A DNA stretch of 32,000 nucleotides from Phycisphaera mikurensis NBRC 102666 (GCF_000284115.1 NC_017080.1:1710001-1742000), one strand, 5' to 3'. Positions 532-16,433 are shown, counted from the first letter of the stretch. A program made the numbers and translations. Notes: a model not told the origin generated them from the sequence alone.

Positions 532-1153
532 ATGCGAAACCTCCTCCCGATGCTGCCCGCCACCGCCGTGGCGTTCGCTTTCCTCGTCGCCGCGCCGGCT
601 TCGGCGCAGGCGACGTTCCAGTACGCGGTCGGGTCGGGCGAGGCCCGCAGCGACCTCGTCGTCGACTTCGCGGGCTCGGGCAGCACGCCGGGCGGGGCGT
701 ACGCCTTCTCCTACTTCTACGACCCCGCGGACAACCCGACCGGGCTCGACCTGCTGACGGCGATCGATGCGGGCGGCGGCCTCGACGTCGCGACGACGCA
801 GTTCAGCTTCGGCGTCGCCATCGACGGTTTCACCTTCGGCGACGACTCGCGGGTGTTCGAGAGCTTCACGGAGGGCTCGTTCCGCTACTTCGTCTCCGGG
901 GGGGACCGGGCAGCAGTTCCTGCCCCCGGACTTCGCGCCCACGCTCCGCGACTACGCCGACGACGGGTACACGGTCGCGGCTTCCGGGGCGTCGGGTCGC
1001 TTCCTCGCCGACGGCAGCGTCGACGCCTTCCGCTTCGCCGACGCCGCGGGGACCCGGCCGGCGGCGGTGCCGGCGAACATCCCCGAGCCCGCGGCCGCCG
1101 CGTGGGCGGCGGGCGGCGGGCTGCTGCTGCTGCTCCGACGGCGGGCGTCGTGA
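532..1153 (+). pseudogene. PEP-CTERM sorting-domain secreted protein (DUF4430-like fold suspected), interrupted by a frameshift at a G7 tract (898-904)
   Basis: ATG 532 gives the signal peptide [27 protein letters not shown] in frame 1. Protein-like sequence continues to ...FRYFVSGG, then degrades into Arg-rich text. Frame 2 picks up at the same G run with [10 protein letters not shown]...[24 protein letters not shown], i.e. a PEP motif, TM stretch and RRR (PEP-CTERM signature). Removing one G joins the halves. Confidence 0.7.
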
Positions 1154-1941
1154 GGCGGCGTCCCGCCTTCACGCTGGTCGAGCTGCTGGTCGTCGTCTCC
1201 GTGATCGCGCTCTTGATCGGGCTGCTGCTGCCGGCGCTGGCGGCGACGCGGGAGGCGGGCCGTGCGGCGGTGTGCCTGTCGAACCTGCGGCAGACCACGC
1301 TGGCGCTGATCAGCTACGCGACGGCGGACGGCGGCGGGCTCGTGCCGCTGGTGCAGAATCGACCCGCGGGGCGGGCTTGGTGGTTCGGCTTCGAGCCGAA
1401 GCCGTACGTCGGCCTCAACCGGCCGATCGAACCCGGGGGCTCGCCGCTGGCGACGCACGCGGACGGGCTCTTCGGCGAGGGCATCGCCTGCCCCGCCTTC
1501 CCCGCCGGCGACCCGGGCTTCAACGCGAAGTTCGCCCGGCGGAGCGCCCACTTCGGCTACAGCGGCGGCCTCGCGCCGCCGGCGTACACCGGTCTGCCGA
1601 CGAAGCGCCTGGTGGAGGTGGCCGACGCGTCGGGCACCTTCGCCTTCGCCGACGCGCTGCACCAGGACTTCTCGCCCACCGCGTTCAACGAGCCGCACGA
1701 GGTCGCCTTCCGCGGTCCGGGCGCGGTGAGCGGGGCGGGGCACTTCCGCCACGCCGCAACGGCAAACCTCTCCTACCTCGACGGACACGCCGCCGCCCTG
1801 GAGCCGCCGGAAGGGGAGGCGGTGCACGGGAGCTTCGGGGGCGGCGACCTCGTCAACCTCGACGTCGCGCAGGGGCGGGGCACGCGTTACGGCTTCCCGA
1901 CGTGGACCGCGTCGCTGCTCCCCGCCACGGTGCGGCCATGA
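1150..1941 (+). CDS. prepilin-type N-terminal cleavage/methylation domain protein (DUF1559-like pseudopilin)
   Basis: GTG 1150 overlaps the upstream TGA (GTGA). The N-terminus is [29 protein letters not shown], followed by [14 protein letters not shown] and a C-terminal NLSYLDGH motif typical of this Planctomycete family. Confidence 0.85.
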
Positions 1942-2231
1942 GGATCGATCGCTGCGTCTGCACGGGTCGCTTCTTCGAGAGCCTGCTCGCCCAGGCCCGG
2001 GCGGAGGATCTGTCGTTGCCGCAGCTGATGGAGCGAACCGGCGCCGGGCGTGGCTGCGGCAGCTGCCGCGTCTACGTCTCCCGGGCGTACCGAACCGGCC
2101 AGACCGTCTTCGGCGAGCTGCTCGAGAGCGACGCGGAGCCGCCGCCGGCGGAGGGGGACGCGCAGGCGGCGACGCCGGCGCCGGCGGCAGCCGCGCGGGA
2201 CCGTGGAGCGACGCGCGACGCCGGAGGCTGA
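1938..2231 (+). CDS. BFD-like [2Fe-2S]-binding domain protein
   Basis: ATG 1938 overlaps the upstream stop (ATGA). The sequence [11 protein letters not shown]...[13 protein letters not shown] carries the C-x-C...C-x-x-C pattern of bacterioferritin-associated ferredoxin-like domains. Confidence 0.8.
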
Positions 2232-2370: not shown

Positions 2371-3513
2371 GTGAGTGCCAACTCTGATTCCCTGATCGCC
2401 CACGACCCCTTGAAGGTCCACGCGACGCTGGCGGACACGCCGCTCTCGAAGTACTTCAAGGCGGCGGTGAAGTTCGGGGCCTCGGACCTGATCATGCGGG
2501 GCGGCCAGCCGCCCAAGCTGCGGCTCAAGGGCGACCTCAAGGCGCTGGACACCCGGCCGCCGACGGTCAAGGAATTCAACGACTGGATCCACGACGGGCT
2601 CTCGCCCGAGCAGATCGCGCAGTACCAGGACCGGGGCAGCCTCGACCTGGGCATCGACTTCGACATCGACGGCGAGAAGCACCGCTTCCGCGTGAACATC
2701 TTCCTGACCCGTTCTCGCTCCGCCATCGCCGCCCGCCGGGTCAGCAACGAGATCCTCAACTTCGAGCAGCTGCACCTGCCGCCGGCGATGGAGAAGATCA
2801 CCCACGCCAAGCAGGGCATCATCCTCCTGTGCGGGGTGACGGGTTCGGGCAAGTCCACCACCATCGCGGCGATGCTCGACGAGATGAACAAGCGGGATCC
2901 GATCCACATCCTCACCATCGAGGACCCGATCGAGTACCTCTTCGAGGACAAGAAGGCGATGATCAACCAGCGCGAGATCGGGCTGGACTGCCCCGACTTC
3001 GCGACCGCCCTCCGCGCGATGGTCCGGGAGAACCCCGACGTGGTGCTCGTCGGGGAGATGCGCGACCGCGAGACCTTCGAGGCCGCGCTGCAGGCCGCCG
3101 AGACCGGGCACCTCGTGCTGGGCACGATCCACGCGAGCTCGGCCACCCAGGCCTTCGGCCGCATCTACGACCTGTTCCCCGCGGAGGAACGCGAGGCGAT
3201 CCGCACGCTGCTCGCGTACCAGATGCAGGCCTTCATCTACCAGAAGCTCCTGCCGACGCTGAAGGAGAACATGCCGCGCGTGCCCGCGGTCGAGATCCTG
3301 CTCCAGAGCCCGCCGGTGCGGAAGGCGATCATCGAGGGCCGCGAGGCGGAGCTCGACAAAGTCATCAAGGACAGCCGCGACATGGGCATGCGGACCTTCG
3401 TCGACTCCCTGGTCGAGCTGGTGGAGACCGAGTACATCCACCCCCGCGTGGCGCAGGCCAATGCGCCGTCGGCGGACGAGATCAAGATGCGGCTCCGGGG
3501 GATCTCCGTATGA
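2371..3513 (+). CDS. pilT: type IV pilus twitching-motility (retraction) ATPase, PilT family
   Basis: Walker A GVTGSGKSTT, Asp box ILTIEDPIEYLF, Walker B DVVLVGEMRDRET and His box GHLVLGTIHASSA are all present. The GTG 2371 start is chosen just upstream of the conserved N-terminal domain. Confidence 0.9.
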   Translation: MSANSDSLIAHDPLKVHATLADTPLSKYFKAAVKFGASDLIMRGGQPPKLRLKGDLKALDTRPPTVKEFNDWIHDGLSPEQIAQYQDRGSLDLGIDFDIDGEKHRFRVNIFLTRSRSAIAARRVSNEILNFEQLHLPPAMEKITHAKQGIILLCGVTGSGKSTTIAAMLDEMNKRDPIHILTIEDPIEYLFEDKKAMINQREIGLDCPDFATALRAMVRENPDVVLVGEMRDRETFEAALQAAETGHLVLGTIHASSATQAFGRIYDLFPAEEREAIRTLLAYQMQAFIYQKLLPTLKENMPRVPAVEILLQSPPVRKAIIEGREAELDKVIKDSRDMGMRTFVDSLVELVETEYIHPRVAQANAPSADEIKMRLRGISV

Positions 3514-5126
3514 CGCCTGAACCGGCCTTCCTCGTCAGCATCGCCAAGCCGCTGCTGCTCTTCGCCGTCCTGCTGGGCTGGGGGCGGTTGGTTTCCTTCT
3601 TCGACAAGGACGCGGCGCACTTCCACCTCAAGCGGACGCTGTTCAACGGGCTGCACCTGCTCGGCGGTGTCGCCGGCTTCGGCGTGATGCTCCTGGTTCC
3701 GCTGTTCTGGCTCGGCCTCCCGCTGGGCGTGCTGCTGCTGGCCGGGTCGATCGCGGGCTACGTCTACTACCGCAACGGCCAGGTCGACGACAAGCAGAAG
3801 TGGACGCTCGACCTGGAGGATCTCCGCCGCCAGATGGCGGAGAAGCGGCAGGGCAAGGCCCAGAAGGCGACGAGCGTCAAGCTCCGCCGCAACGGCCAGG
3901 AGGTCGAGGTGCCCCGCGGCGACGACCCGCGCGTGGAGGCTCACGAGCAGCTCGAGCGGATGCTCAAGTTCTCGGTCGAGCGGGACGCGGAGACGATGGA
4001 CCTGGTGGTCGAGGACCAGAAGGTCCAGCTCTCCGCGAAGATCGACGGCGTGCGTTACCCCATCGAGTCGCCGGCACCGGACGTCGCGCTCGCCGCGATC
4101 GACTTCATGAAGCAGGCGGCCGGGCTGGACATCGACGACCGCCGCCGCCGGCAGAGCGGACGCGTGCAGGCGGAGGTGCTCGACGAGGAGGGCGGCTCCC
4201 GCTCGGCGGAGCTGGAGATCCTCACCGCGGGCAGCACCCGCGGCGTGCAGATGCAGGTGACGCTGAACCCCGACGCGAGCACCGAGATGCCCCTGGACCG
4301 GCTGGGCCTGCTGCCCAAGCAGCTGGAGTACCTCGAGTCGGTGCTCGGCGAGAACAAGGGCGCGGTGGTGCTCGCGGCGGACAAGCACCAGGGGGCGCCG
4401 ACGACGATGTTCGCGATGCTCAGCCGCGTCGATCCCTACACCAACTCGGCGGTGCTGATCGCCAGCGACGATCAGATCGACCTCGAGGGCATCGACCGGC
4501 ACGTCTTCGACCGCGGCAAGCCGGCCTCGGAGTTCAACTCCGAGCTGGCCGGCATCCTGCGGACCGATCCGAACATCGTGATGCTCGACCGGATCGCCGA
4601 TGCGAAGACGGTCGCGCTGATCGCGGGGCTCTCCAACGAGATCCGGTTCATGCTGCCGTTGCCGCAGCCGGACACGACCACCGCGGTGAAGGCTTACCTC
4701 AAGGCGTCCGGCGATCCGAAGGAGGCCGCCAAAGGCCTCTCGACGGTGATCGGTCAGCGCCTGGTCCGCCGGCTGTGCACGACCTGTCGCGTTCCCTACA
4801 GCCCCAACCCGGCCGCGCTCAAGAAGCTGGGGATCCCGCAGGACAAGGTCGGGACGCTCTACAAGTCCAGCGGGAAGGTCCTCGTGAAGGAGCAGCAGCA
4901 GGCCTGCCCCGACTGCCACGGCATCGCGTACCGCGGGCGCGTCGGGGTCTTCGAGGTGATGCCGGTCGACGACCGTGCCCGCAAGCACATGGCCGCCGGC
5001 GAGATGGACGCGCTGCGGAGCCACCTCCGCAAGCAGGGCATGGTCTACCTCCAGGAGGCCGGCCTCGCCAAGGTGGTCGAGGGCGTGACGGACATCAAGG
5101 AGGTTCAGCGGGTGCTGGCGGAGTAG
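3510..5126 (+). CDS. membrane-anchored GspE/PilB-like protein with degenerate ATPase motifs (predicted pseudo-ATPase)
   Basis: ATG 3510 overlaps the pilT stop (ATGA). There are three N-terminal hydrophobic helices. A GspE N2-like region (SAKIDGVRYPIE...IDDRRRRQSGRV) and a C-terminal tetracysteine motif (CTTCRVPY...CPDCHGIAYRGRVGVFEV) are retained. Walker A reads LAADKHQGAPTT, Walker B NIVMLDRIAD and the His box PLPQPDT. Confidence 0.85.
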   Translation: MTPEPAFLVSIAKPLLLFAVLLGWGRLVSFFDKDAAHFHLKRTLFNGLHLLGGVAGFGVMLLVPLFWLGLPLGVLLLAGSIAGYVYYRNGQVDDKQKWTLDLEDLRRQMAEKRQGKAQKATSVKLRRNGQEVEVPRGDDPRVEAHEQLERMLKFSVERDAETMDLVVEDQKVQLSAKIDGVRYPIESPAPDVALAAIDFMKQAAGLDIDDRRRRQSGRVQAEVLDEEGGSRSAELEILTAGSTRGVQMQVTLNPDASTEMPLDRLGLLPKQLEYLESVLGENKGAVVLAADKHQGAPTTMFAMLSRVDPYTNSAVLIASDDQIDLEGIDRHVFDRGKPASEFNSELAGILRTDPNIVMLDRIADAKTVALIAGLSNEIRFMLPLPQPDTTTAVKAYLKASGDPKEAAKGLSTVIGQRLVRRLCTTCRVPYSPNPAALKKLGIPQDKVGTLYKSSGKVLVKEQQQACPDCHGIAYRGRVGVFEVMPVDDRARKHMAAGEMDALRSHLRKQGMVYLQEAGLAKVVEGVTDIKEVQRVLAE

Positions 5127-5130
5127 GAGA

Positions 5131-5242
5131 GAAGCGGAGAAGCGGAGAAGCGGAGAAGCGACGAAGCGACGAAGCGGAGAAGCGAAGAGGCGGAGAAGCG
5201 AAGAAGCGACGAAGCGGAGAAGCGAAGAAGCGGAGAAGTCAG
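5131..5242. repeat. tandem array of ~14 degenerate 8-bp units (GAAGCGGA / GAAGCGAC / GAAGCGAA), array R1
   Basis: Read directly from the sequence, starting 5 nt after the TAG at 5124-5126. The array is almost T-free on the + strand. Confidence 0.95.
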
Positions 5243-5301
5243 AAACAGAGACGCAACCCTGATGTGAATGCAAGCCCGATGGGGGAGCCGTGGCCTCTTG
5301 C

Positions 5302-5345
5302 CTGACTTCTTCGCTTCCTATCTTCTTCGCTTCCCCGCTTGCCTC
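5302..5345. repeat. inverted, pyrimidine-strand partial copy of the octamer array (CTGACTTCTTCGCTTCC...)
   Basis: 5302-5318 is the reverse complement of 5226-5242 with 2 mismatches in 17. Together with R1 it makes a long imperfect inverted repeat around a 59-nt spacer. Confidence 0.7.
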
Positions 5346-5366
5346 CGCCGAAGGCGGATCCTTCCC

Positions 5367-7091
5367 ATGATCCTCAACATCCTCGTCCTCGTCCTCGTCC
5401 TCGCGATGGCCATCTTCTGGTCGACGCAGGGGCTGTTCAGCGCCTTCATCCACCTGGTCGCGACGGTGGTCGCCGGCGCGATCGCTTTCGCGGTGTGGGA
5501 GCCGGTGACGCTGGGGCTGTTGCTCGATCCGCTCACGTCGTGGGCGTGGGCGACCGGGCTGCTGCTGCCCTTCGCGCTGGCGCTGATCGTGTTGCGGATC
5601 CTCAGCAACAAGGTGATCGGCGGCAACCTGAAGCTGCCGAGCCTCGCCGACCAGGGCCTCGCCGGCCTCGTCGGGGCGGTCAGCGGCGTCCTGACGGCGG
5701 GCGTGTGCCTGCTGGGGGTGTCGTTCCTGCCGCTGGGCCCGGCGCTGCTGGGCTACCAGCCCGTGGAGGTGCAGACCACCGCGCGCCTCGGCCCGCCCAC
5801 CAACGACGCCGTGACGACCTCGCTCTGGATCCCGGTGGACCGGCTGACCGCCGACTTCTTCGCCTTCGCGTCCACCCACGGATTCTCGAGCCACCGCCCC
5901 CTGGGCCTGCTGCGGCCGGATCTCGACGAGGCGGCGGCGCGATTCCGCATCGGCCAGTTCTACGACCCCAACGCCTCGCTCGTGGCCAACCCATCGACCG
6001 TCGCGGTCGAGGCGGTCCGGGTCTACGACGGCGAGCTGCCCGCCGAGGTGCCGGCGCTGCTGGGGCAGTTCATCGCCGAGTCGGCCCCGACCCGCAACGG
6101 CGACCGGCTCGTGCTGGTGACCACGCGGTGGGAGGCGCTCAAGGACACGGCCACCTTCGACGAGGGCATCCTCCGGCTCCCGCCGGTGCAGACCGTGCTG
6201 CTCGCGGCGCCCCCGGCCGGGCCGCTCGCCATGCACCTGCCGGTGGGCTGGAGCAAGAAGCCGGTGACCTCCAGCACCGCCGCGTTCTACGGCGTGGTGG
6301 ACAACCGCAGCTACGCGAGCAGCGAGCTGCCCGAGGAGACGATCACCTTCGTCTACGCGATCCCCGAGAACCAGGACCCCGTGTACTTCGAGACCCGGAT
6401 GCTGCGGATCCCGCTGGGCGAGCCGGAGCAGGGCGCCGCCGGGGACGGAGCGGTCGTGGCCGACCTGCTCGGGGAACCGGCCATCGAGGCCGGCGAAGAG
6501 GGCGACGCGGGCGGCGGGCCCGGCGTCAACGTCTCGCCGCAGAACGCCGCGGCCGCGGCGGCGGTGGGCGAGCCCGTCGGCAACGCCGCCTTGAAGGCGC
6601 TGTCGATCGAGGCGACGAACAGGCTGCCGGGTCGCATCTCCATCAACGCGGCGAGCGGGCTCGACGTGGAAGAGAAGGAGGTGATCTCCGGGCGGCAGAA
6701 CGTGCAAAAAGGCGACCGCACCGCGACGGTCGACTCCATCCGCACGCCGCCGGGCCAGGTCATGGTCCGCCTGGAGCTGTCGCCGATGAGCACCAGCCAG
6801 GCATTGCCCACGCGGGTCGTCGCGAAAGTCGCCGGGGGGGACGGCCGGTACAAGCTCGTGGACACCCGCGGGAACGAGTTCTTCGCCCGTGCCACCGTGT
6901 GGCAGAAGGACGCCGGCGAGCAGGAGATCCACGTGACCGACCGCCTCGACAACGCGGCAGACCTCCCGATCAACCGCCTCCAGGACGGCGACCGGCTGTT
7001 CGCCTACTTCGCCATGCCCGACGGGCTCGTGCTTGACCGGTTCGTGGTCGGCACGATGGAGCAGGACGTCGACTTCACGGTGGGGGAGTGA
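5367..7091 (+). CDS. CvpA-family membrane protein fused to a ~400-aa C-terminal domain of unknown function
   Basis: ATG 5367 gives [31 protein letters not shown]... with four hydrophobic helices resembling colicin V production protein (CvpA). I do not recognise any motif in the remainder. Confidence 0.8.
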
Positions 7092-7100
7092 CGTCTCCTT

Positions 7101-7156
7101 TGGAGCAAGAGACGAAGAGACGAAGAGCCGGAGAGACGAAGACAGCAGGAGGCGCG
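7101..7156. repeat. octamer array R2 (GAGACGAA GAGACGAA GAGCCGGA GAGACGAA ...)
   Basis: Read directly from the sequence. It lies between the CvpA-like stop (7091) and the conserved start region of murD. Confidence 0.85.
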
Positions 7157-7171
7157 GGGCCGGGCGTCGCG

Positions 7172-8521
7172 GTGCTCGGTCGGCTCCTCGCCACCGGTGA
7201 AGGCCGCCGTGCGGTGGTGCTCGGGCTCGGCCGCTTCGGGGGCGGCGTGGGGGTGGTGGGCTTTCTCGCGGAGCGAGGGTTCTCGGTGGAGGTGGTCGAC
7301 GACGCGGACCGGGCGTCGCTGGCGGCTTCGGAGGCGACGGTCCGCGGGTCGTGCTCCAGCCTGCGGCTGGGGCCCGGCAGCTCGGACGCCGCGGCGGCCG
7401 AGATCGGCGGGGCGGCGCTGCTGGTCGTCAACCCGGCGGTGAAGCCGGGGCACCCGCTGTGGGCGGCGGCGGAGGCGGCGGGCGTGCCGGTGACCACGGA
7501 GATCGGGCTGCTGGTGTCGGTGCTGCCGGAGGGCGTGGACGTCGTCGGCATCACCGGTTCCGCCGGGAAGAGCACGACCTCAAGCATGGCGGCGGTGGTT
7601 TCGGAGACCGGCGGCGGAACCGGCCGCGTGTGGCTCGGCGGCAACCTCGGCGGATCGCTGCTCTCCGGCGTCGCGGCGTTCGCGGACGCGGACACGTTCG
7701 TGCTCGAGCTCTCCAGCTTCATGTGCTTCCACCTCGACCGGCTCGGCTGGTCGCCAGGCGTCGCGGTGCTCACGAACCTCTCGCCGAATCACCTCGACTG
7801 GCACGGCGGCTTCGCCGCCTACGCCGCGGCGAAGAGGGCGCTCTTCGCGCATCAGCAGCCCGGGGACCGCGCGGTGCTGCCCGCCGGCATGGAGACGTCC
7901 TTCGTACGCCGCGGCGTGGAGGTCGTGCCGGTGGAGGCTCCTCCAGCGGATCTCCCTCTGCTGCGGGTGCCCGGCGAGCACAACCGGCTCAACGCGGCTT
8001 TCGCCCTCGCCGCCGCGGAGCCGCGGACCGCGAGCAAAAAGGCCCGCGACGCCCGACGGTCCGCGGCGCTGGAGGCGCTGGCCGGCTTCGCGGGGCTGCC
8101 GCACCGGCTGCAGGCGGTGCCGGTGACGACAGGCTGGCCCGCGGGCGTGCGGGCGTTCGACGACTCCAAGGCGACGACGCCGGAGGCGGCGGCGCTCGCC
8201 CTGCAAGCCTTCGAGCCCGGTGTCGTGCGGGTGATCCTCGGCGGGGCGGACAAGGGCAGCGACCTCGCTCCGCTCGCCCGCTCCGCGGCCCGACACGCGG
8301 CGGGCGTCTACGCGATCGGCCGCACCGGCGACGCCATCGCCGACGCCGCGGGAGGCGGCCCGGCGGTCGTCCGCCGCTGCGGGACGCTTGCCGGCGCCGT
8401 CGACGCGATCCGCGGCGACGCCCGGCCGGGCGACGTCGTGCTCCTCTCCCCCGGCTGCGCTTCCTGGGACCAGTTCCCCAACTACGAGGCGCGGGGCGCC
8501 GCCTTCGCGACGAGCCTCTGA
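7172..8521 (+). CDS. murD: UDP-N-acetylmuramoylalanine--D-glutamate ligase
   Basis: [11 protein letters not shown] Rossmann N-terminus, [12 protein letters not shown]-loop, [34 protein letters not shown] and [19 protein letters not shown] are all present. The start is uncertain. GTG 7172 has AGGAGG at 7147-7152 and lies downstream of R2. The alternative GTG 7088 (GTGA overlap) would translate the octamer array. Confidence 0.9.
7302..7347. repeat. 46-bp inverted-repeat element copy 2 (inside murD; left arm ACGCGGACCG)
   Basis: Nine perfect arm pairs (7303-7311/7338-7346) with a 26-nt spacer. It is translated as [15 protein letters not shown]. Confidence 0.8.
8021..8066. repeat. 46-bp inverted-repeat element copy 3 (inside murD)
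   Basis: Exact arms at 8021-8030 and 8057-8066 with a 26-nt spacer. It is translated as [15 protein letters not shown]. Confidence 0.9.
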
Positions 8522-8704: not shown

Positions 8705-9619
8705 TCAGCCGTCGAACGCGTCGTTGTCGGCGGTGCCGTCGCCGTCGAGGTCGTCCACGGCCGCGGGGGCGCTCATCGAGCCGTGGCCGTCGAGGTACGT
8801 GAACCCGGCGACGCCGCCCTGGTTCCGTGTCGCCGGGGCGGAGCGGTAGAGCCAGGGGTGCTCGGGGTCGTAGCCGGCGACGTTCTCCGCCGGCCCGCTC
8901 TCGTAGTAGGGCAGCGGGTCGCCGACGCTCCCGGAGCGGCCACGCTCGGAGCCCACGGGCGGCGCGGGTGCGTCCAGCGCGTAGACGGCCTTTCCGCCGT
9001 CGCCCGGCTCGGCCGAGGCAACACCGTTGCGCGAGCCGGCGGTGTCGCCCAGCGCGATCGTGCCGGACTCGTCGCGGATCTCGCGGCCGAGGCGGGCGTG
9101 GAAGGTGGGCGTGGAGCGGGCGTTGCCCAGGTACCGGAAGTTGTAGCCGTAGCCGCCGTGCCGAGCGACGTCGTCGCCGGCGGCGACGGTCGGGTCGGCC
9201 ACGGGGGTGACCGCAGTCCGCGCCGCCTGCTCTGCCGGCGTCGTCGACAGCTCGTGGAAGAAGATCTTGGTGAAGCCCGCGTCGACCTCCCGCTCCGTCA
9301 GCGACGGCGAGCGGAAGGCCTCGACCGCCGGCATGAAGGGGAAGAGGTAATCCACCCACCTCGGCTTGGTGCTCATGCCTCCGGCGGTCACGGTGGAGGA
9401 GCCCGTCGAGGACGAGTGCATCGGCAGGAAGTCCTTCCGCTCCACCGCGTACGCGGTGAGGGCGATGCCGATCTGCCGGAGGTTCGACAGCGACTGCGAC
9501 GAGCGTGCGGCGCCGCGGGCGGCCCCGAGCGCGGGCAGGAGGATGCCGATCAGCAGGGCGATGATCGAGATGACGACGAGGAGCTCGATGAGCGTGAAGC
9601 CGGGGCGAGGGTTTCGCAT
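8705..9619 (-). CDS. prepilin-type N-terminal cleavage/methylation domain protein (DUF1559-like pseudopilin)
   Basis: [51 protein letters not shown]..., with C-terminal FTYLDGHGS. The ATG is at 9617-9619 on the complement. The track ORF extends to a TTG at 9649. Confidence 0.85.
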
Positions 9620-9651
9620 GCGGGAGCGGGGCGTGAAGCGCGGAAGCAATG

Positions 9652-9674: not shown

Positions 9675-9751
9675 TAGGCGGAGCCTACGTGTTCTTCGGC
9701 AGGTGTCAACAGACCCTCCCGCGGGAGCGGCAGCCGGTAGCTTCCACGCCG

Positions 9752-11455
9752 ATGAAGTTCCGCTTGATCGCACGCCACCTCGGCTTGCTGCTGCTCGTGC
9801 TGGGCGGCTGCATGCTCGTCGCCACGCTGGCGGAGCTGCTGGGGTTCGGCCGCGACGGCCCCAATGTCGAGCCGGTTGCCGAGGCCTTCGGCGCCGGCCT
9901 CGCGACGTGCGCCTCGCTCGGCGGCGGCCTGCTGTTCCTGGGCCGCCGCACCGCGACGCAGCGCCAGGCCCGCGCGGCGGCGCGGAGCCGCGGCGAGCGG
10001 TACGCCGGGCCGCAGCTCACGCGACGCGACGCCATGGCGATGGTCGCGGCGGGCTGGGTTCTGGGGGCCGGGGTGGCGGCGCTGCCCTTCTTCTCGTGGG
10101 CTTGGCTGCACACCGACGAGGTGGTTCCCGCGGTGTCCGCCGGCCCGGACGCACCCGCGCCGGAGGAGGCGGCGGGCACGCCGGTGACGCCGGCCGGCAA
10201 GGTCGTGCAGGCCGCGGGCTTCGACCACCCCTTCCGCAGCTTCGCGGCGTGCTACTTCGAGGCGATGTCGGGCATGACCACGACGGGAGCGTCGGTGCTG
10301 GGCACCGCCCCGCACGACATCGAGAGCCTGCCCTCGGGCCTGCTCCTCTGGCGGTCGCTCATCCAGTGGCTCGGCGGCCTGGGCATCGTGGTGCTCTTCG
10401 TGGCGGTGCTCCCGCTGCTGGGCGTCGGCGGCAAGACGCTGGTGCAGTTCGAGACGACCGGACCGGTGAAGCAGGGCGTCCGACCGAGGATCGCCGACGC
10501 TGCCCGCGAGCTCTGGCTGATCTACCTCGGTCTGTCCGCCGCCTGCTGCGGGCTGCTGGTGTGGCCGGGGGGCTTAAGCCTCTTCGACGCGGTGAATCAC
10601 ACCTTCACCGCGCTCGCGACCGGCGGCTTCTCCACCCGCAACGCGAGCGCCGGCGCTTACGACAGCGTCCCGGTCGACCTCGTGCTCGTGCTGTTCATGC
10701 TCCTCGCCGGCGTGAACTTCGGGCTCTACCACCAGGCGATCAACGGGCGCTGGCGGGCCGTGCTCCAGGACGCCGAGCTGCGGACGTACCTCTTGATCGT
10801 GCTCGCGGCGACGCTGGTGATCGCGGCGATGCTCGTGGGTTCGGAGCTGACGCTGACCACCGGGCAGCCGCGGGAAGCCGGCGTGCTCGAGTCTTTGCGA
10901 CACAGCCTCTTCCAGGTGGTGTCGGTGATGACGACGACCGGCTACGCCACCGCCGACTTCGACCAATGGGGCTTCGTGCCCAAGGCCATCCTGGTCGGCC
11001 TGATGTTCGTGGGCGGGTGCGCCAGCTCCACGGGTGGCGGGATCAAGGTCGTGCGGATCCTCACGGTGTTCAAGGTCTTCGGCGCGACGCTGGAGAAGGT
11101 CTACCGGCCGACGGTCGTGCGCACCGTGAAGATCGGCGGGGCGCCCCTCTCGGAGGGGGTGAAGGAGAGCGTGCTGATCTTCGTGCTCACCATGATCGGG
11201 CTGTTCGTGGCGGGCGCCCTCGTGCTGCGGTTGCTCGAGCCCGATCAGCTGACGGTCGTCGGCGCGGCGACCGCCTCCGCCGCGACGCTCATGAACATCG
11301 GCCCCGGCTTGCAGGCGGTGGGACCGATGAACAACTTCGGGTTCTTCGGCAGCGACTCGCTGATCGTGATGAGCCTCCTCATGGCGCTCGGCCGCCTGGA
11401 GGTGTTCGCGCTGCTGGTCGTCCTCACGCCCCGCTTCTGGCGGAACACGACCTGA
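9752..11455 (+). CDS. trkH: TrkH/KtrB-family potassium uptake membrane protein
   Basis: Multi-TM protein with repeated selectivity-filter-like segments (MSGMTTTGASV, ALATGGFST, SVMTTTGYAT, CASSTGGGIKV) and QWLGGLGIVVLFVAVLP. Confidence 0.9.
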   Translation: MKFRLIARHLGLLLLVLGGCMLVATLAELLGFGRDGPNVEPVAEAFGAGLATCASLGGGLLFLGRRTATQRQARAAARSRGERYAGPQLTRRDAMAMVAAGWVLGAGVAALPFFSWAWLHTDEVVPAVSAGPDAPAPEEAAGTPVTPAGKVVQAAGFDHPFRSFAACYFEAMSGMTTTGASVLGTAPHDIESLPSGLLLWRSLIQWLGGLGIVVLFVAVLPLLGVGGKTLVQFETTGPVKQGVRPRIADAARELWLIYLGLSAACCGLLVWPGGLSLFDAVNHTFTALATGGFSTRNASAGAYDSVPVDLVLVLFMLLAGVNFGLYHQAINGRWRAVLQDAELRTYLLIVLAATLVIAAMLVGSELTLTTGQPREAGVLESLRHSLFQVVSVMTTTGYATADFDQWGFVPKAILVGLMFVGGCASSTGGGIKVVRILTVFKVFGATLEKVYRPTVVRTVKIGGAPLSEGVKESVLIFVLTMIGLFVAGALVLRLLEPDQLTVVGAATASAATLMNIGPGLQAVGPMNNFGFFGSDSLIVMSLLMALGRLEVFALLVVLTPRFWRNTT

Positions 11456-11845: not shown

Positions 11846-11887
11846 GGCGGGTTCCGGGAGCGCGACGCCGGAGCCTACGGTGCGGCT

Positions 11888-12436
11888 GTGCGGTGCCTCA
11901 CCCTCGCAGCTTCGTTGAGCCCCGCCAGCCGCAGCGCCGGCCTCGCCGCGGCGGCGAGGAACGCGGTCGCGGCGCACGGCGTGGAGTCGAACCTGCTCGA
12001 CCTCCGCGACCACGATCTGCCGCTGTGCGACGGCGGGAGCTGCTACGCCCACCCGTCGGTCCGCGAGCTCTCCGACGCGATCGGCGCGGCCGACCTGCTG
12101 CTGGTCGCGCTGCCGATCTACAACTATGGCGTCAACGCCGCGGCGAAGAACCTCGTGGAGCTCACCGGCCCGGCCTGGACCGGCAAGACCGTCGGCTTCC
12201 TCTGCTCCGCCGGCGGGACCAGCAGCCACATGGCGGTGATGGGCTTCGCCAACACGCTGATGCTCGACTGCCGCTGCCTCGTCCTGCCACGCTTCGTGTA
12301 CGCCGCGCCGGACGCGGCCGACGCCGGAGGCACCCCGACGGCGGCGCTCGCCGAGCGGATCGAGGCCCTCGCGGCCGAGGGCGTGCGGGTCGCTTCCGCC
12401 CTGGCAGAGGCCCCCGCCGCGGCCGTGCCCGCCTGA
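11888..12436 (+). CDS. NAD(P)H-dependent FMN reductase family protein
   Basis: LTLAASLSPASRSAGLA...LLDLRDHDLPLCDG...ADLLLVALPIYNYGVNAAAKNLVEL...GKTVGFLCSAGG matches the flavodoxin-like FMN reductase pattern. GTG 11888 is preferred over GTG 11840, which would overlap the divergent gene start. Confidence 0.75.
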   Translation: MRCLTLAASLSPASRSAGLAAAARNAVAAHGVESNLLDLRDHDLPLCDGGSCYAHPSVRELSDAIGAADLLLVALPIYNYGVNAAAKNLVELTGPAWTGKTVGFLCSAGGTSSHMAVMGFANTLMLDCRCLVLPRFVYAAPDAADAGGTPTAALAERIEALAAEGVRVASALAEAPAAAVPA

Positions 12437-12451
12437 GCTCTTCTCCCCGCC

Positions 12452-12694
12452 TCAGCCGGCGAGGATGGCGGTCCGGAAGCGGCGGCGGTGCCGCAGGTAC
12501 CGCAGGAGCGGGCTGGCGGCCACGGCCGCGACGGCGAGCCAGCAGACGCCGGCGGCCGCGGCCACGGCATCGCTCGGCGACGCGATCCCGCCGCCGTCGA
12601 CCGAGAGAAAACCGAACCAGGCCGCGAGCACCAACGCGGCCGCGGGCACGCACCAGCGCCTCCTGGATCTCCTCGGGTGGTGTCTTCTTCGCAT
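12452..12694 (-). CDS. small two-TM membrane protein (hypothetical)
   Basis: An ATG is preceded by GGAGGA 3 nt upstream. Nearly every codon ends in G/C. There are two hydrophobic stretches (AAALVLAAWFGFLSV, GVCWLAVAAVAASPLL). No homology recognised. Confidence 0.5.
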   Translation of the reverse strand: MRRRHHPRRSRRRWCVPAAALVLAAWFGFLSVDGGGIASPSDAVAAAAGVCWLAVAAVAASPLLRYLRHRRRFRTAILAG

Positions 12695-12849
12695 GCTTCC
12701 TCCGCCGGCAGTGTTCCACGCGGAGCATGCGGGGGCAAGCGTCCGTCGGGCTCTGGTCGGTTCTTTATCGTCCGGGCGCGCCACCGGCCCGCACCGGCGC
12801 CCGCCGAGGCCGCCGCGGTCGCCGAGCCGCCCCGAACCCCGGAAGAAGC

Positions 12850-13722
12850 ATGCAGGAAGCCATCAGCAAGGCGGCAACGCTCGTCGAGGCCCACGCCTAC
12901 ATCCGCGAGTTCCGCGGCAAGGTCGTCGTGGTGAAGGTTGGCGGGTCCATCATGGACCAGCCCGAGGCGCTGGGGAACCTGCTCGGCGACGTGAGCTTCA
13001 TGCACGCCGTGGGCATGCGGCCGGTGGTGGTGCACGGCGGCGGCAAAGCCATCAACGCGGCGATGTCCGACGCGGGGCTCGATGCGCAGTTCGTGCAGGG
13101 CCGCCGCTACACCGACGAGCGGACGCTGGCGATCGCCGAGCACGTGCTCATCAACGACATCAACGCCGCCGCGGTCGGCCACTTGAAGGAGGCGGGCACG
13201 CCCGCGATGGGCCTGCACTCCCTGGGCTCGTGCGTCGTCTTCGCGAAGCGGCTCACGCTCCGCGGCGAGCAGAACCGGCGCATCGACATCGGCATGGTCG
13301 GCGAGGTCGAGTGGGTCAACACCGAGCTGCTGCGGGCCGTGCTCGACGCCGGCAGCATCCCGGTCATCGCGCCCATCGCCCGGGATCCCGCCGGCGGCAA
13401 GCTCAACATCAACGCCGACTCGGTCGCCGGCCACGTCGCCGGGGCGCTGCGGGCCGAGAAGTTCGTGCTCGTGTCCGACACCCACGGCATCCGCACCGAC
13501 CCCGACTCCGAAGAGACCGCCTCGACGCTGACGCGCGACGCGACGGACGGGCTGATCCGGGACGGCGTGATCGACGGCGGCATGCTGCCGAAGGTGGAGG
13601 CGGCGCTCACCGCGCTCGGCGGCGGGTGCCGGAAGGCGCACATCGTGGACGGGCGGATCCCGCACGCGCTGCTGCTGGAGGTGTACACCGAGGCGGGGAT
13701 CGGGACCGAGATCGTGCTCTGA
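12850..13722 (+). CDS. argB: acetylglutamate kinase
   Basis: VVVKVGGS, VVVHGGG, RYTDERTL, NINADSVAG and GGMLPKVEAA are typical ArgB motifs. The start is ATG 12850. Confidence 0.95.
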   Translation: MQEAISKAATLVEAHAYIREFRGKVVVVKVGGSIMDQPEALGNLLGDVSFMHAVGMRPVVVHGGGKAINAAMSDAGLDAQFVQGRRYTDERTLAIAEHVLINDINAAAVGHLKEAGTPAMGLHSLGSCVVFAKRLTLRGEQNRRIDIGMVGEVEWVNTELLRAVLDAGSIPVIAPIARDPAGGKLNINADSVAGHVAGALRAEKFVLVSDTHGIRTDPDSEETASTLTRDATDGLIRDGVIDGGMLPKVEAALTALGGGCRKAHIVDGRIPHALLLEVYTEAGIGTEIVL

Positions 13723-13732
13723 TCCGCGTGGG

Positions 13733-14325
13733 GAACCGCACGCTGCTCCGCTCTGCCCGCCACCCTGGCCGCGGTCGCTGCGTGGCGACGCCACGCTGTC
13801 CGACTCCCCATCCAGCTCCTTCGCGCTCAAGGCAGACGGAGCGGCGTCGCCGCTCCGCTCTCGGAGCCAACGGCGCCACGCTGTCCGCGTCGCGATCCAG
13901 CTCCTTCGCGCACAAGCAGACAGAGCGGCGTCGCCGCTCAGCTCTCGGAGCCACCCTGGCCGCGCTAGCTGCGTGGCGACGCCACGCTGTCCGACTCCCA
14001 GTTCCAGCTCCTTCGCGCACAAGGCAGACAGAGCGGCGTCGCCGCTCAGCTCTCGCAGCCAACCTGGCCGCGTTAGCTGCGTGGCGACGCCACGCTGTCC
14101 GGGTCCCCATCCAGCTTCCTCGCGCACAAGCCCGACAGAGCGGCGTCGCCGCTCAGCTCTCGCAGCCGGCCTGGCCGCGTTAGCTGCGTGGCGACGCCAC
14201 GCTGTCCGGGTCCCCATCCAGCTTCCTCGCGCACAAGCCAGACAGAGCGGCGTCGCCGCTCAGCTCTCGCAGCCAGTTTGGCCGCGATGGCTGCGTGGCG
14301 ACGCCACGCTTTCCGGGTCGCGATC
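13733..14325. repeat. tandem repeat, ~107-bp unit, 5 full and 2 partial copies, each with two perfect 17-bp palindromes
   Basis: Unit starts (CTGCGTGGCGAC) are at 13778, 13969, 14077, 14184 and 14291, plus a head-deleted unit at ~13873. The palindromes are GCGTGGCG-A-CGCCACGC and GAGCGGCG-T-CGCCGCTC. Confidence 0.95.
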
Positions 14326-14383: not shown

Positions 14384-15229
14384 CTACTTGAGGTCCCGCT
14401 GCTGGAAGCCGACGATCCCGACGGAGACGAAGGTCGCGGACAGGGCGAAGAGAATCAGCGCACTGCGGGCGATCATCGGCCAGGGCGGGTACGCGAGGAA
14501 GGTGCGGACCCAGAAGCCGGCGTGGTACGAGATGAACCAGTGGCGGAGGCTCTTGAAGTAGGGCAGCTGCCCGAGCACGAGGTCGACGAAGAGCACCGAG
14601 AGCGTGAGGATCGTCGCGGCGGCGGGCTTCATCCGGAAGCACGAGAACATGAAACCCAGCGAGGCGATCACGCAGGTGGCGTAGGCGAGGCAGAGCACGC
14701 CGCGGGCGTAGCGGTAGAGCCCCTCGCCGGTCCCGTAGAAGGCGAAGAGCTGCTCGTCGGGGATGACGATGAAGAGCCTGCCGAGGCCGCCGCGGTAGAG
14801 CGACGCCAGCGTGAGGGCGGTGACGCCCAGGAACGCGACGAGGCTGAGGGTGTAGACGAGGCAGGCGGCGTACTTCACGCCGAGCAGGCGGACCCGCGAG
14901 ACCGGGCGGGCGAGGACCAGCCGCATCGTGCCCTCCTCGACCTCCTTGGCGACGATGTCGCCGGAGACGAGCGCGACGTACAGGCCGCCCAGGAAAGTGA
15001 AGCTGAAGGCGATGATGACCACCGCCAGCGTGAGGCCCTGGTAGTGCGAAGCGAACTCCAGGCCGTTCTCGCCGAGCAGCTTCGCGATCTCCTCCTTCGG
15101 CCGCGGGTGCTGCAGCATCGCGAGGATCGCGCCCTGCAGCGCGAGGAAGGCGCCGAAGCCGATGTACGTCCGCTTGCGGGCGTAAAGCTTGAAGAGCTCG
15201 GAGGCGAGTTGGTGGAGGAGGAGGGGGAT
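14384..15229 (-). CDS. ABC-2 type transporter permease
   Basis: Six hydrophobic helices with ELFKLYARKRTYIGFGAFL at the N-terminus and EEGTMRLVLARPVSR, typical of ABC-2 permeases. The start is unresolved. Options are ATC 15229, ATG 15118 (loses TM1), or GTG 15544 (reads through octamer array R3 and overlaps the ATPase gene by 74 nt). Confidence 0.8.
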   Translation of the reverse strand: MPLLLHQLASELFKLYARKRTYIGFGAFLALQGAILAMLQHPRPKEEIAKLLGENGLEFASHYQGLTLAVVIIAFSFTFLGGLYVALVSGDIVAKEVEEGTMRLVLARPVSRVRLLGVKYAACLVYTLSLVAFLGVTALTLASLYRGGLGRLFIVIPDEQLFAFYGTGEGLYRYARGVLCLAYATCVIASLGFMFSCFRMKPAAATILTLSVLFVDLVLGQLPYFKSLRHWFISYHAGFWVRTFLAYPPWPMIARSALILFALSATFVSVGIVGFQQRDLK

Positions 15230-15252
15230 GGTTCGGGGTGGGTGGGGGGGGG

Positions 15253-15428
15253 GAAGAGGCGAAGAAGCGGAGAAGCGAAGAAGCGGAGAAGCGAAGAAGC
15301 GAAGAAGCGGAGAAGCGAAGAAGTGAAGAAGCGGAGAAGCGAAGAAGTGGGGAAGCGAAGAAGCGGAGAAGCGAAGAAGTGGGGAAGCGGAGAAGCGAAG
15401 AAGTGGGGAAGTGGGGAATTGGAAGGGA
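15253..15428. repeat. octamer array R3, ~22 units (GAAGAAGC GGAGAAGC GAAGAAGT GGGGAAGC ...), preceded by a G10 tract (15244-15253)
   Basis: Read directly from the sequence. It lies between the ABC ATPase stop (15471) and the first TM helix of the permease. Confidence 0.95.
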
Positions 15429-15470
15429 GTTGGCGCAGCCCGATAGCTTGGCCGGCGCGTTTGGCTCTTT

Positions 15471-16433
15471 TTAGTTTCGCTCCTCTTTGCTTGCTCCGTG
15501 CCTGGTTGCAGCCGTCGCTCGCGCGGCCTCGGTTTTGGTTGCACGCTCGAGATAGAAGGCTTCGAGCGTCGGTGCGATGGGGGCGAAGGCGGAGACGTCG
15601 AAGCCCGCGTTCACGAGGTGGGCGTTCGCCCGGGCGAGCGGGACGTCGCCGCGGACCGTGACGGTTTCGGGCTCCTGGCCGTCGCGGTCCGCGGATTCGA
15701 CGAGGCCCGCTGCGGCGAGGGAGGCGAGGGCTTCCGCGGGGCGGTCGGTCCGGATGCGGACGCGGCGGCGGGCGGCGGCGGTGGCGGCACGCCAGTCGCC
15801 CTCGAAGACGTGCCGGCCGCGGTGCAGCACGGTGACGGTCCCGCAGAGCTTCTCCACCTCGGCGAGCAGGTGGCTGCTGAAGAGGATCGTGAGATCCAGC
15901 TCGGCGTGCAGCTCCAGCAGCAGCTCGCGGAAGGCGGCGATGCCCTGCGGGTCGAGGCCGTCGGTGGGCTCGTCGAGGATGAGCACCTCGGGCGTGGGCA
16001 GCAGCGCCTGCGCCAGCGCGAGCCGCTGGCGCATGCCGTGCGAGTAGGTGGAGACCTTGGCGTGGATCCGCTCCGCGAGGCCGACCCGCTCCACGACGGC
16101 GTCGATCTCCGCCTCGCTCACCCGGCGCGTGAGGTTGGAGAAGGCCCGCAGGTTCCGCCGGGCCGAGAGGTAGTCGTAGAAGCACGGCGCCTCGAAGATG
16201 GCGCCCACCCTCCCCAGCGCCGCGCCGCGTTCCGCCGCGACGTCGTGGCCGTTCACCAGCGTCCGGCCCGCGTCGGGGTGCACCTGGCCGAGCAGCATGC
16301 CCAGCGTGGTGGACTTGCCGGCGCCGTTGTGGCCGAGCAGGCCGTGGATCGCGCCCCGCGGCACCTCCAGCGACAGCCCCTCGACGGCCGGCCGGCCCGC
16401 GAAGGCCTTCGACAGGTTCTCGAGGCGGATCAC
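15471..16433 (-). CDS. ABC transporter ATP-binding protein (ABC-2 exporter type)
   Basis: Walker A GHNGAGKSTT, signature YSHGMRQRLALAQAL, Walker B VLILDEPTDGLD and H-loop SSHLL are all present. Confidence 0.95.
   Translation of the reverse strand: MIRLENLSKAFAGRPAVEGLSLEVPRGAIHGLLGHNGAGKSTTLGMLLGQVHPDAGRTLVNGHDVAAERGAALGRVGAIFEAPCFYDYLSARRNLRAFSNLTRRVSEAEIDAVVERVGLAERIHAKVSTYSHGMRQRLALAQALLPTPEVLILDEPTDGLDPQGIAAFRELLLELHAELDLTILFSSHLLAEVEKLCGTVTVLHRGRHVFEGDWRAATAAARRRVRIRTDRPAEALASLAAAGLVESADRDGQEPETVTVRGDVPLARANAHLVNAGFDVSAFAPIAPTLEAFYLERATKTEAARATAATRHGASKEERN
15649..15694. repeat. 46-bp inverted-repeat element copy 4 (inside the ABC ATPase CDS)
   Basis: Exact arms at 15649-15658 and 15685-15694 with a 26-nt spacer. 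The stem extends inward (15/16 over 16 nt). It is translated on the - strand as ADRDGQEPETVTVRG. Confidence 0.9.

Follow-up and report, generated by a model that had tools for sequence, protein, structure and literature searches.

In a 32,000-nucleotide stretch of the Phycisphaera mikurensis NBRC 102666 genome (GCF_000284115.1 NC_017080.1:1710001-1742000, referred to here as the window, with positions counted from its first nucleotide), a gene was found to encode a membrane-anchored pseudo-enzyme, psGspE, which is derived from the PilB/GspE family of extension ATPases and has kept the N2, RecA-like C-terminal and zinc subdomains of that family. As predicted from its sequence, psGspE is without the residues needed for ATP hydrolysis. 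The gene is located next to, and is probably co-transcribed with, genes for an intact PilT and for an inner-membrane protein of the CvpA family. No description of the psGspE family was found in the searchable literature, which, to our knowledge, contains no earlier account of a PilB/GspE family member that is both membrane-integral and catalytically dead. The conserved order of PilT, psGspE and CvpA genes across Planctomycetota suggests an undescribed three-protein membrane machine.

Both profile searches and structure prediction bore out a preliminary description of the window, made from the sequence, in assigning psGspE to the GspE/PilB fold. Pfam T2SSE (PF00437) matched residues 148-534 with an E-value of 1.7e-30 (106 bits, as compared with a cut-off of 24.9), and the best solved relatives identified by phmmer were T. 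thermophilus PilF (5e-35), V. vulnificus GspE and the PilB proteins of M. xanthus and Geobacter. The AlphaFold2 (AF2) model, which was built on 46 family sequences, had a mean predicted local distance difference test (pLDDT) score of 90.7. Foldseek matched residues ~140-538 to G. metallireducens PilB (5tsh) with an E-value of 8e-33 and a target-normalised TM-score of 0.85, and ranked PilB first (~1e-33), with PilT, PilU and DotB next (~1e-16). Scores against the NCBIfam equivalog models for GspE (TIGR02533, 149.1 bits) and PilB (TIGR02538, 143.4 bits) were far under the respective cut-offs of 630.25 and 675.65, which indicates that psGspE is a relative, and not an orthologue, of working GspE and PilB enzymes; the match to the PilT model TIGR01420 was marginal (E = 0.0017). 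No Pfam match to PF05157, the N1 or GSPII_E N-terminal domain that canonical family matches carry, was found on psGspE. The N2-like segment with the motif DDRRRRQSGRV, the tetracysteine motif and YRGRVGVFEV, which had been described as retained, are all present, and the four cysteines and R212 were found in every homologue surveyed. The gene and its domains beyond the membrane anchor are as follows.

3510..5126, + strand: psGspE, membrane-anchored pseudo-GspE/PilB, 538 amino acids
3813..3869, + strand: charged linker helix (residues 102-120 in the AF2 model) that joins the membrane domain to the N2 domain
3933..4283, + strand: N2-like domain, residues 142-258 (alignment to PilF)
4122-4166, + strand: N2 motif GLDIDDRRRRQSGRV, which contains DDRRRRQSGRV, with the invariant R212
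4314..5123, + strand: C-terminal ATPase-fold domain, residues 269-538, catalytically degenerate (Foldseek match to 5tsh)
4776..4916, + strand: tetracysteine zinc-binding subdomain CTTC...CPDC (C423, C426, C466 and C469; cysteines in 116/116 homologues)

All four catalytic motifs are degenerate in psGspE. In the phmmer alignment to PilF, the Walker A motif ITGPTGSGKSFT of PilF was aligned with LAADKHQGAPTT of psGspE, the Asp box IEDPVEYEI with IASDDQIDL, the Walker B motif MVGEIRD with MLDRIAD, and the His box ATLHTND with LPLPQPD. When four active GspE/PilB proteins (GPTGSGKTT, EDPIE, MVGEIRDLET and STLHTNS) were included in a MAFFT alignment, the motifs of psGspE fell into the same register. 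An intact Walker A lysine or catalytic glutamate elsewhere in psGspE, which the preliminary description had named as evidence against its reading, was found in neither the phmmer nor the MAFFT alignments, and the placement of the four degenerate motifs agreed with that description.

4371..4406, + strand: degenerate Walker A LAADKHQGAPTT (AADKHQGAP), with Ala296 at the canonical lysine position and only G295 invariant
4452..4490, + strand: degenerate Asp box VLIASDDQIDLEG, with Ala318 in place of the canonical glutamate
4566..4604, + strand: degenerate Walker B DPNIVMLDRIADA, in which the canonical G-E-x-R-D reads D-R-I-A-D
4647..4676, + strand: degenerate His box FMLPLPQPDT, with proline at the histidine position

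A survey of homologues for the same substitutions, as had been proposed earlier, was carried out on 116 full-length homologues (33-90% identity), each of which belongs to Phycisphaerae or to unclassified Planctomycetota, and the motif loss was found to be family-wide. GK[ST] was present in Walker A of 15 of the 116 homologues (one subclade, reading APQQGKTTT), and the canonical lysine position was otherwise variable, with L, V, T, G, M or A. The Walker B catalytic glutamate was present in six homologues, the Gly-Glu pair in none, and the His-box histidine in three; none of the 116 combined GK[ST] in Walker A with the Walker B glutamate. The Asp-box glutamate (E318) was kept in 103/116 and was lost only in the P. 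mikurensis clade. All four zinc cysteines, R212 of the N2 domain and G295 of the P-loop were each conserved in 116/116 homologues, while Y474, R475, R477 and E482 of YRGRVGVFE were near-invariant and T297-T299 of the P-loop were mostly kept. No compensating family-specific invariant lysine, glutamate or histidine was identified in the C-terminal domain in the homologue alignments, the invariant residues being the canonical structural ones. Motif degeneracy is a trait of the family across the phylum and is not peculiar to the P. mikurensis gene.

In place of the N1 domain, psGspE carries an N-terminal membrane anchor, and the earlier proposal of about 90 residues with three hydrophobic helices was supported by both hydropathy analysis and the AF2 model. 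The hydropathy segments were residues 6-24, 45-63 and 65-83, and three hydrophobic segments were found in nearly all homologues; the AF2 helices were residues 12-37, 42-62 and 66-91, with pLDDT of ~90. Near-invariant residues of the anchor included K13, P14, W24, K33 and D34 (in a loop motif L-D-K-D-A), P64, F66, G69, Y84, R88 and N89. The transmembrane (TM) segments and the conserved loop are located as follows.

3510..3785, + strand: N-terminal membrane domain, residues 1-92 (hydropathy and AF2)
3525-3593, + strand: TM1, residues ~6-28
3594-3641, + strand: conserved loop SFFDKDAAHFHLKRTL after TM1
3642-3698, + strand: TM2, residues 45-63
3702-3770, + strand: TM3, residues 65-87

When a profile of the anchor (residues 1-125) was run against a set of 1.84 billion representative proteins, it yielded 618 cluster representatives at E ≤0.001 and 278 at ≤1e-10. 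Among the matches listed that were at least 500 amino acids long, 65 of 66 aligned over the whole of psGspE; the shorter matches were fragments. The profile detected the corresponding proteins of Planctomycetia (TM-psGspE) at 34-52 bits across all three helices, and did not match canonical GspE or the soluble dead paralogue described below. The three-helix anchor, in place of N1, exists only in the psGspE architecture. The topology is probably N-out and C-in, which would put the ATPase-like body on the cytoplasmic side, because the loop after TM1 is basic (positive-inside rule) and many homologues have signal-peptide-like N-terminal extensions.

Among Pfam families, the only match to the membrane domain was FHIPEP at an E-value of 0.11, which was taken as chance. 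The only hit of the membrane-domain profile in a PDB search, over psGspE residues 45-126 (~3642-3887), was GldL (6ys8), of the gliding/type IX secretion motor, at an E-value of 0.16 and 15 bits. Ion-driven motors of the GldL/MotA type use a conserved acidic TM residue; the psGspE family has none, and the match, which was non-significant, was treated as a chance resemblance and noted as no more than a lead.

The genes on either side of psGspE are listed here with their motifs.

2371..3513, + strand: PilT/PilU-family ATPase, 380 amino acids, all catalytic motifs intact (TIGR01420 and Pfam T2SSE)
2833-2859, + strand: PilT Walker A, GVTGSGKST
2914-2934, + strand: PilT Asp box, TIEDPIE
3046-3066, + strand: PilT Walker B, LVGEMRD
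3121-3141, + strand: PilT His box, GTIHASS
5367..7091, + strand: CvpA-family membrane protein, 574 amino acids (Pfam Colicin_V and NCBI name)
7088..8521, + strand: MurD-like Mur ligase, a conserved neighbour in Phycisphaerae only (tblastn)

The upstream PilT scored 381.9 bits against NCBIfam TIGR01420, above the cut-off of 319.1, and 1.6e-42 against Pfam T2SSE; with its four catalytic motifs intact, it is predicted to be active, as had been proposed. An independent gene call gave the same boundaries for PilT (2371-3513, 380 amino acids) and psGspE (3510-5126), with the start codon ATG of psGspE (3510-3512) overlapping the stop codon TGA of PilT (3511-3513) in the sequence gtATGAcg.

The conservation of this gene order was analyzed in one genome per species, at 50 Phycisphaerae loci in which neighbours were identified by tblastn with the genes of the window. 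The locus search was based on a 14-sequence alignment; a 46-sequence alignment had no conserved stretch for back-translation. PilT was directly upstream of psGspE in 45 of the 47 Phycisphaerae loci with enough flank, the CvpA-like gene was directly downstream in 46/46, and MurD came next in 36/39, with variable genes further out. Across these loci, PilT was much more conserved (56-86% identity) than psGspE (30-58%) or the CvpA-like protein (26-44%). In four Planctomycetia loci (L074, L060 and L050 of Pirellulaceae and L051 of Planctomycetaceae), hisF, PilT, TM-psGspE and CvpA genes were found in this order; TM-psGspE is ~26% identical and also degenerate, and the CvpA proteins have 206-214 amino acids. 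This synteny, in 45/47 Phycisphaerae and 4/4 Planctomycetia loci, supports the functional partnership with PilT that the preliminary description had put forward. Its claim of translational coupling stands for P. mikurensis, where the ATGA overlap is present, and does not hold in general: the genes were always close and co-directional in 46 related loci, with an estimated gap from PilT to psGspE of 59-380 nucleotides (median 130). The ATGA overlap, which was shared by P. mikurensis and locus L082, is lineage-specific; a start/stop overlap between psGspE and the CvpA-like gene was found in L083.

Between TM-psGspE and cvpA, two of the Planctomycetia loci (L074, 11652-12962; L060, 9655-10953) encode a second degenerate T2SSE paralogue of 432-436 amino acids without TM helices, in which the Walker A region reads ALPGDGSS and the Walker B region FFSQVRSPD (L074). 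In both loci, a single live PilT is thus accompanied by a pair of dead GspE paralogues. The conserved block was devoid of genes for PilC/GspF, PilM-Q, a secretin and dedicated pilins or pseudopilins in P. mikurensis, L082, L083, L074, L051, L060 and L050, the flanks were likewise free of PilC, PilM-Q and secretin genes, and the module therefore looks stand-alone and not like a classical pilus operon.

The protein encoded downstream of psGspE carries the NCBI name 'CvpA family protein', and its precomputed Pfam annotation is also CvpA. Its score against Colicin_V (PF02674; 5.2e-6, 26.9 bits) is just under the cut-off of 29.3, and the syntenic Planctomycetia CvpA proteins scored 38.3 (L051), 29.4 (L060) and 28.9 (L050) bits, with a further one at 26.2. 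Four TM helices are located at its N-terminus, and the C-terminal ~380 amino acids (~residues 200-574) form a beta-rich region; its AF2 model had a pLDDT of 83.6, and no fold match to the beta-rich region was found in the PDB. By the positive-inside rule, the beta-rich region is probably periplasmic.

In view of these results, it is proposed that psGspE is a membrane tether, stator or adaptor for the PilT motor and acts together with the CvpA-like protein, a reading to which a probability of about 0.5 is given. Like its relatives, psGspE would form a ring, which would be embedded in the membrane with the ATPase-like body in the cytoplasm. It would keep PilT, a soluble motor, at the cytoplasmic membrane and couple ATP-driven movements of PilT to the CvpA-like protein, whose large beta-rich domain would face the periplasm, and all catalysis would come from PilT. 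A wider proposal, in which PilT, as a rotary or pulling motor, docks on a membrane ring of its dead PilB/GspE paralogue and transmits force across the inner membrane to the periplasmic beta-domain as part of a hitherto unrecognised, phylum-wide, pilus-independent envelope machine of Planctomycetota, is put forward tentatively and is, on present evidence, unlikely. If it is true, the machine could act in biogenesis of the cell wall or outer envelope or in cell division, the mode of which is unexplained in these bacteria. The stable linkage to murD in the FtsZ-less Phycisphaerae and the nearby lipopolysaccharide genes in some Planctomycetia make an envelope or division role possible. According to a preprint (10.1101/817700), Planctomycetes show no twitching and were thought to be without a retraction ATPase, which makes a non-pilus role for the conserved PilT plausible.

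Several explanations other than a tether were considered, beginning with those that concern the nature of the gene product itself. Loss of the catalytic motifs would be expected if psGspE were a decaying pseudogene, and spurious long open reading frames, as in a mis-called frame, are frequent in high-GC DNA. The GC content at third codon positions of psGspE, however, is 0.96, which is like that of the neighbouring genes and typical for real genes of the P. mikurensis genome, as compared with 0.64 in the spacer at 5127-5366; in addition, more than 116 full-length homologues, down to 30% identity, conserve the domain structure, the AF2 model is confident and the synteny is conserved. A pseudogene or mis-called frame is ruled out by the conservation data and the third-position GC content. 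Alternatively, psGspE might still be an active ATPase via non-canonical residues, comparable to the relocated lysine of WNK kinases. Nothing direct points to this beyond the retention of the fold, R212 and YRGR, whereas four independent catalytic elements were lost together, no invariant lysine, glutamate or histidine of the C-terminal domain could compensate, and the residue at the lysine position is not conserved; such activity is very improbable. The weak AAA_11 match in one of the loci without an adjacent PilT (L049) was misleading, and an active psGspE in these loci (L043 and L049) was rejected, as the motifs are still degenerate (GHGQTT; VLMVELLVH / VLMLTDAFDH).

Other observations weigh against a passive tether for PilT, and some of them favour other roles. 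The shape of the P-loop is conserved, with G295 invariant and T297-T299 mostly kept, one subclade retains GKT, and 103/116 homologues keep the Asp-box glutamate; the conserved P-loop shape and the kept glutamate indicate that a nucleotide or another phosphate ligand may bind, which would favour a regulator or sensor over a passive scaffold. In such a role, psGspE would bind ATP, ADP or another phosphorylated ligand without hydrolysis, and its occupancy would switch it between states that activate or inhibit PilT or the CvpA-like protein, a role to which the invariant R212 of N2 and the largely conserved R475 and R477 of YRGR also lend themselves. The Walker A lysine is missing, however, in 101/116 homologues, its position is highly variable, which is unusual for a conserved binding site, and the P. 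mikurensis protein is without both the lysine and the Asp-box glutamate, so that a sensor is considered unlikely. Also against the tether, the topologies of psGspE and the CvpA-like protein were derived only from the positive-inside rule and signal-peptide-like extensions, the conserved gene order could reflect shared regulation with hisF or murD, and the divergent Phycisphaeraceae loci L043 and L049 read hisF-psGspE-CvpA-like-MurD with no PilT between, so that adjacency to PilT is not obligatory. These two loci, the linkage to the CvpA-like gene (46/46 loci), which is tighter than that to PilT, and the envelope genes nearby (murD in Phycisphaerae; kdsB-like, lpxK and hldE-like genes in L074 and L051) would all be accounted for if psGspE were a zinc-containing scaffold in the membrane, serving an envelope process jointly with the CvpA-like protein and independently of PilT, which would be no more than a conserved neighbour. 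This explanation is rather doubtful, given that PilT is directly upstream in two classes, that start and stop codons overlap in some genomes, and that a dead motor paralogue beside a live member of the superfamily is an unlikely coincidence. It is also conceivable that psGspE and PilT form mixed hetero-hexamers, with live and dead subunits alternating in one ring, as the two are co-encoded members of one hexameric ATPase superfamily, and their coupling in P. mikurensis could favour stoichiometric co-assembly. The two proteins, however, are of different subfamilies: psGspE has the PilB/GspE-type zinc subdomain, resembles PilB (~1e-33) far more than PilT (~1e-16) by Foldseek, and is only marginally similar to PilT by TIGR01420. 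Furthermore, the ATGA overlap, by which stoichiometry would be enforced, is lineage-specific, and known PilT/PilU and PilB/PilT pairs form separate homohexamers; mixed rings are therefore improbable.

Compared with PilB/GspE proteins such as EpsE and PilF, psGspE shares the N2 and C-terminal ATPase folds, the tetracysteine zinc subdomain, the N2 arginine motif and YxGRxGxxE. It differs in that the Walker A lysine, the Asp-box glutamate (in this species), the Walker B Gly-Glu and arginine, and the His-box histidine are replaced, in that a three-helix membrane anchor is found instead of the N1/GSPII_E domain, and in that pilins, a secretin and a PilC/GspF platform are not encoded in its conserved block. 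Canonical GspE is brought to the membrane by its N1 domain, which binds the bitopic GspL; the structure 4pht was among the matches to psGspE. In GspE-GspL and in PilB-PilM/PilN, an ATPase-fold body is likewise held at the inner membrane; in psGspE, three TM helices of the protein itself provide a covalent tether, and what they hold at the membrane is catalytically dead.

A functional analogy may be drawn with the archaellum. Its FlaH (ArlH) is of RecA type and binds ATP with hardly any hydrolysis, and the ring that it forms associates with the active hexameric ATPase FlaI, a member of the PilB/GspE superfamily, and with the membrane platform protein FlaJ. The same logic, an inactive ring that bridges a live motor to a membrane protein, could apply to psGspE, although FlaH is KaiC-like and not paralogous to GspE, and lacks TM helices. 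The downstream partner of psGspE shares the four-TM domain of CvpA (colicin V production protein, PF02674), and the Phycisphaerae protein differs by its additional beta-rich C-terminal region; in the literature searched, no paper linking CvpA functionally to PilT or GspE was found, the papers that contain both terms being comparative-genomics studies of Pectobacterium in which each term occurs once. PilT and PilU are likewise two superfamily members encoded side by side, one of which is reported to depend on the other for function (PMC6762196, PMC6821130). PilU, however, is catalytically active and soluble, while psGspE is of PilB/GspE type, membrane-anchored and, as judged from its motifs, inactive.

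Homologues of psGspE are labelled in databases as 'ATPase, T2SS/T4P/T4SS family' or 'GspE/PulE family protein'. The ATPase annotation of psGspE is probably wrong, and such a misleading label inflates the counts of secretion and pilus motors in Planctomycetota. The linkage of psGspE with a conserved live PilT and CvpA in two classes of a phylum reported not to twitch points to a use of PilT outside pili. CvpA is a widespread protein of unknown mechanism, for which the module offers concrete partners. As Planctomycetota have unusual envelopes and FtsZ-less division, an ATP-driven membrane module by murD is a candidate for targeted genetics.

Further observations were made on the module genes and their surroundings. 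In L037, a metagenome-assembled genome of Phycisphaera, a second PilT paralogue, 40% identical to the PilT of the module, is encoded at 14558-15664, just downstream of murD, and at least some genomes thus have more than one PilT. A hisF-type gene (His_biosynth) is located directly upstream of the module in L074 (7343-8110), L051 (7791-8558) and L050 (1012-1836), and likewise in L083 (7635-8552), L043 (9080-9895) and L049 (9113-9952); it does not precede the module in P. mikurensis and has no obvious functional link to it. After cvpA in L060, two proteins with CarboxypepD_reg repeats (transthyretin-like beta-sandwich) are encoded at 11880-12926 and 13206-14258; these possibly correspond to the beta-rich region that Phycisphaerae have fused to CvpA. 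An origin of the C-terminal region of the CvpA-like protein by fusion with the unknown open reading frame that follows Planctomycetia cvpA was rejected, the hhalign probabilities being <1%. Orthologous MurD neighbours carry Pfam MurD-like_N, Mur_ligase_M and Mur_ligase_C. In the window, the first codon of the longest MurD frame is a GTG, which shares bases with the stop codon of the cvpA-like gene (GTGA, 7088-7091). As alignments to homologues set in only at residue 33-40, this start is uncertain.

In the essential T2SS-like operon Plim_0401-0410 of Planctopirus limnophila, GspE-PilT-GspE-GspF are encoded together with six unknown genes (PMC10632474). Its identity with the psGspE module was rejected, since the gene order differs and Plim_0408 is widely conserved. 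The PADLOC defence-system libraries gave no match to psGspE or the CvpA-like protein, and no Rfam family was found within the window.

The spacer before the cvpA-like gene is filled by an 8-bp purine-rich tandem repeat, GCGGAGAA, at 5118-5238 (~15 copies, with a 40-bp higher-order unit in ~2.7 copies), which starts eight bases before the stop codon TAG of psGspE (5124-5126). A run of the complementary CTTCTTCG (5306-5333, ~3.5 copies) is located 70 nucleotides downstream of it. RNA folding predicted a ~16-bp stem pairing the two runs (minimum free energy -104 kcal/mol, z = -2.0), which could be a regulatory or terminator-like structure or merely the result of simple-sequence expansion.

Upstream of PilT, the gene at 532-1941 (+ strand), called as 469 amino acids, encodes a signal peptide, a small conserved domain, an Arg-rich low-complexity stretch, a mid-protein prepilin-type N-methylation motif and a DUF1559-like C-terminal part; either its architecture is unusual or two genes have been merged, since stop codons are rare in high-GC DNA. 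It is followed at 1938-2231 (+ strand) by a gene for a small BFD-like [2Fe-2S]-binding protein (Fer2_BFD 3.8e-5, under the cut-off), the ATG of which overlaps the upstream stop codon (ATGA). A BFD-like gene was found upstream of PilT on the same strand, at 54-2,200 nucleotides, in the closest relatives (L001-L005) and not in more distant loci. Downstream of MurD, a second DUF1559 prepilin-like gene is located at 8705-9649 (- strand) and an open reading frame for a TrkH-like K+ transporter at 9689-11455 (+ strand). DUF1559 genes recur near the module in other loci, a linkage that may be due to chance, as they are very numerous in the phylum (PMC10632474).

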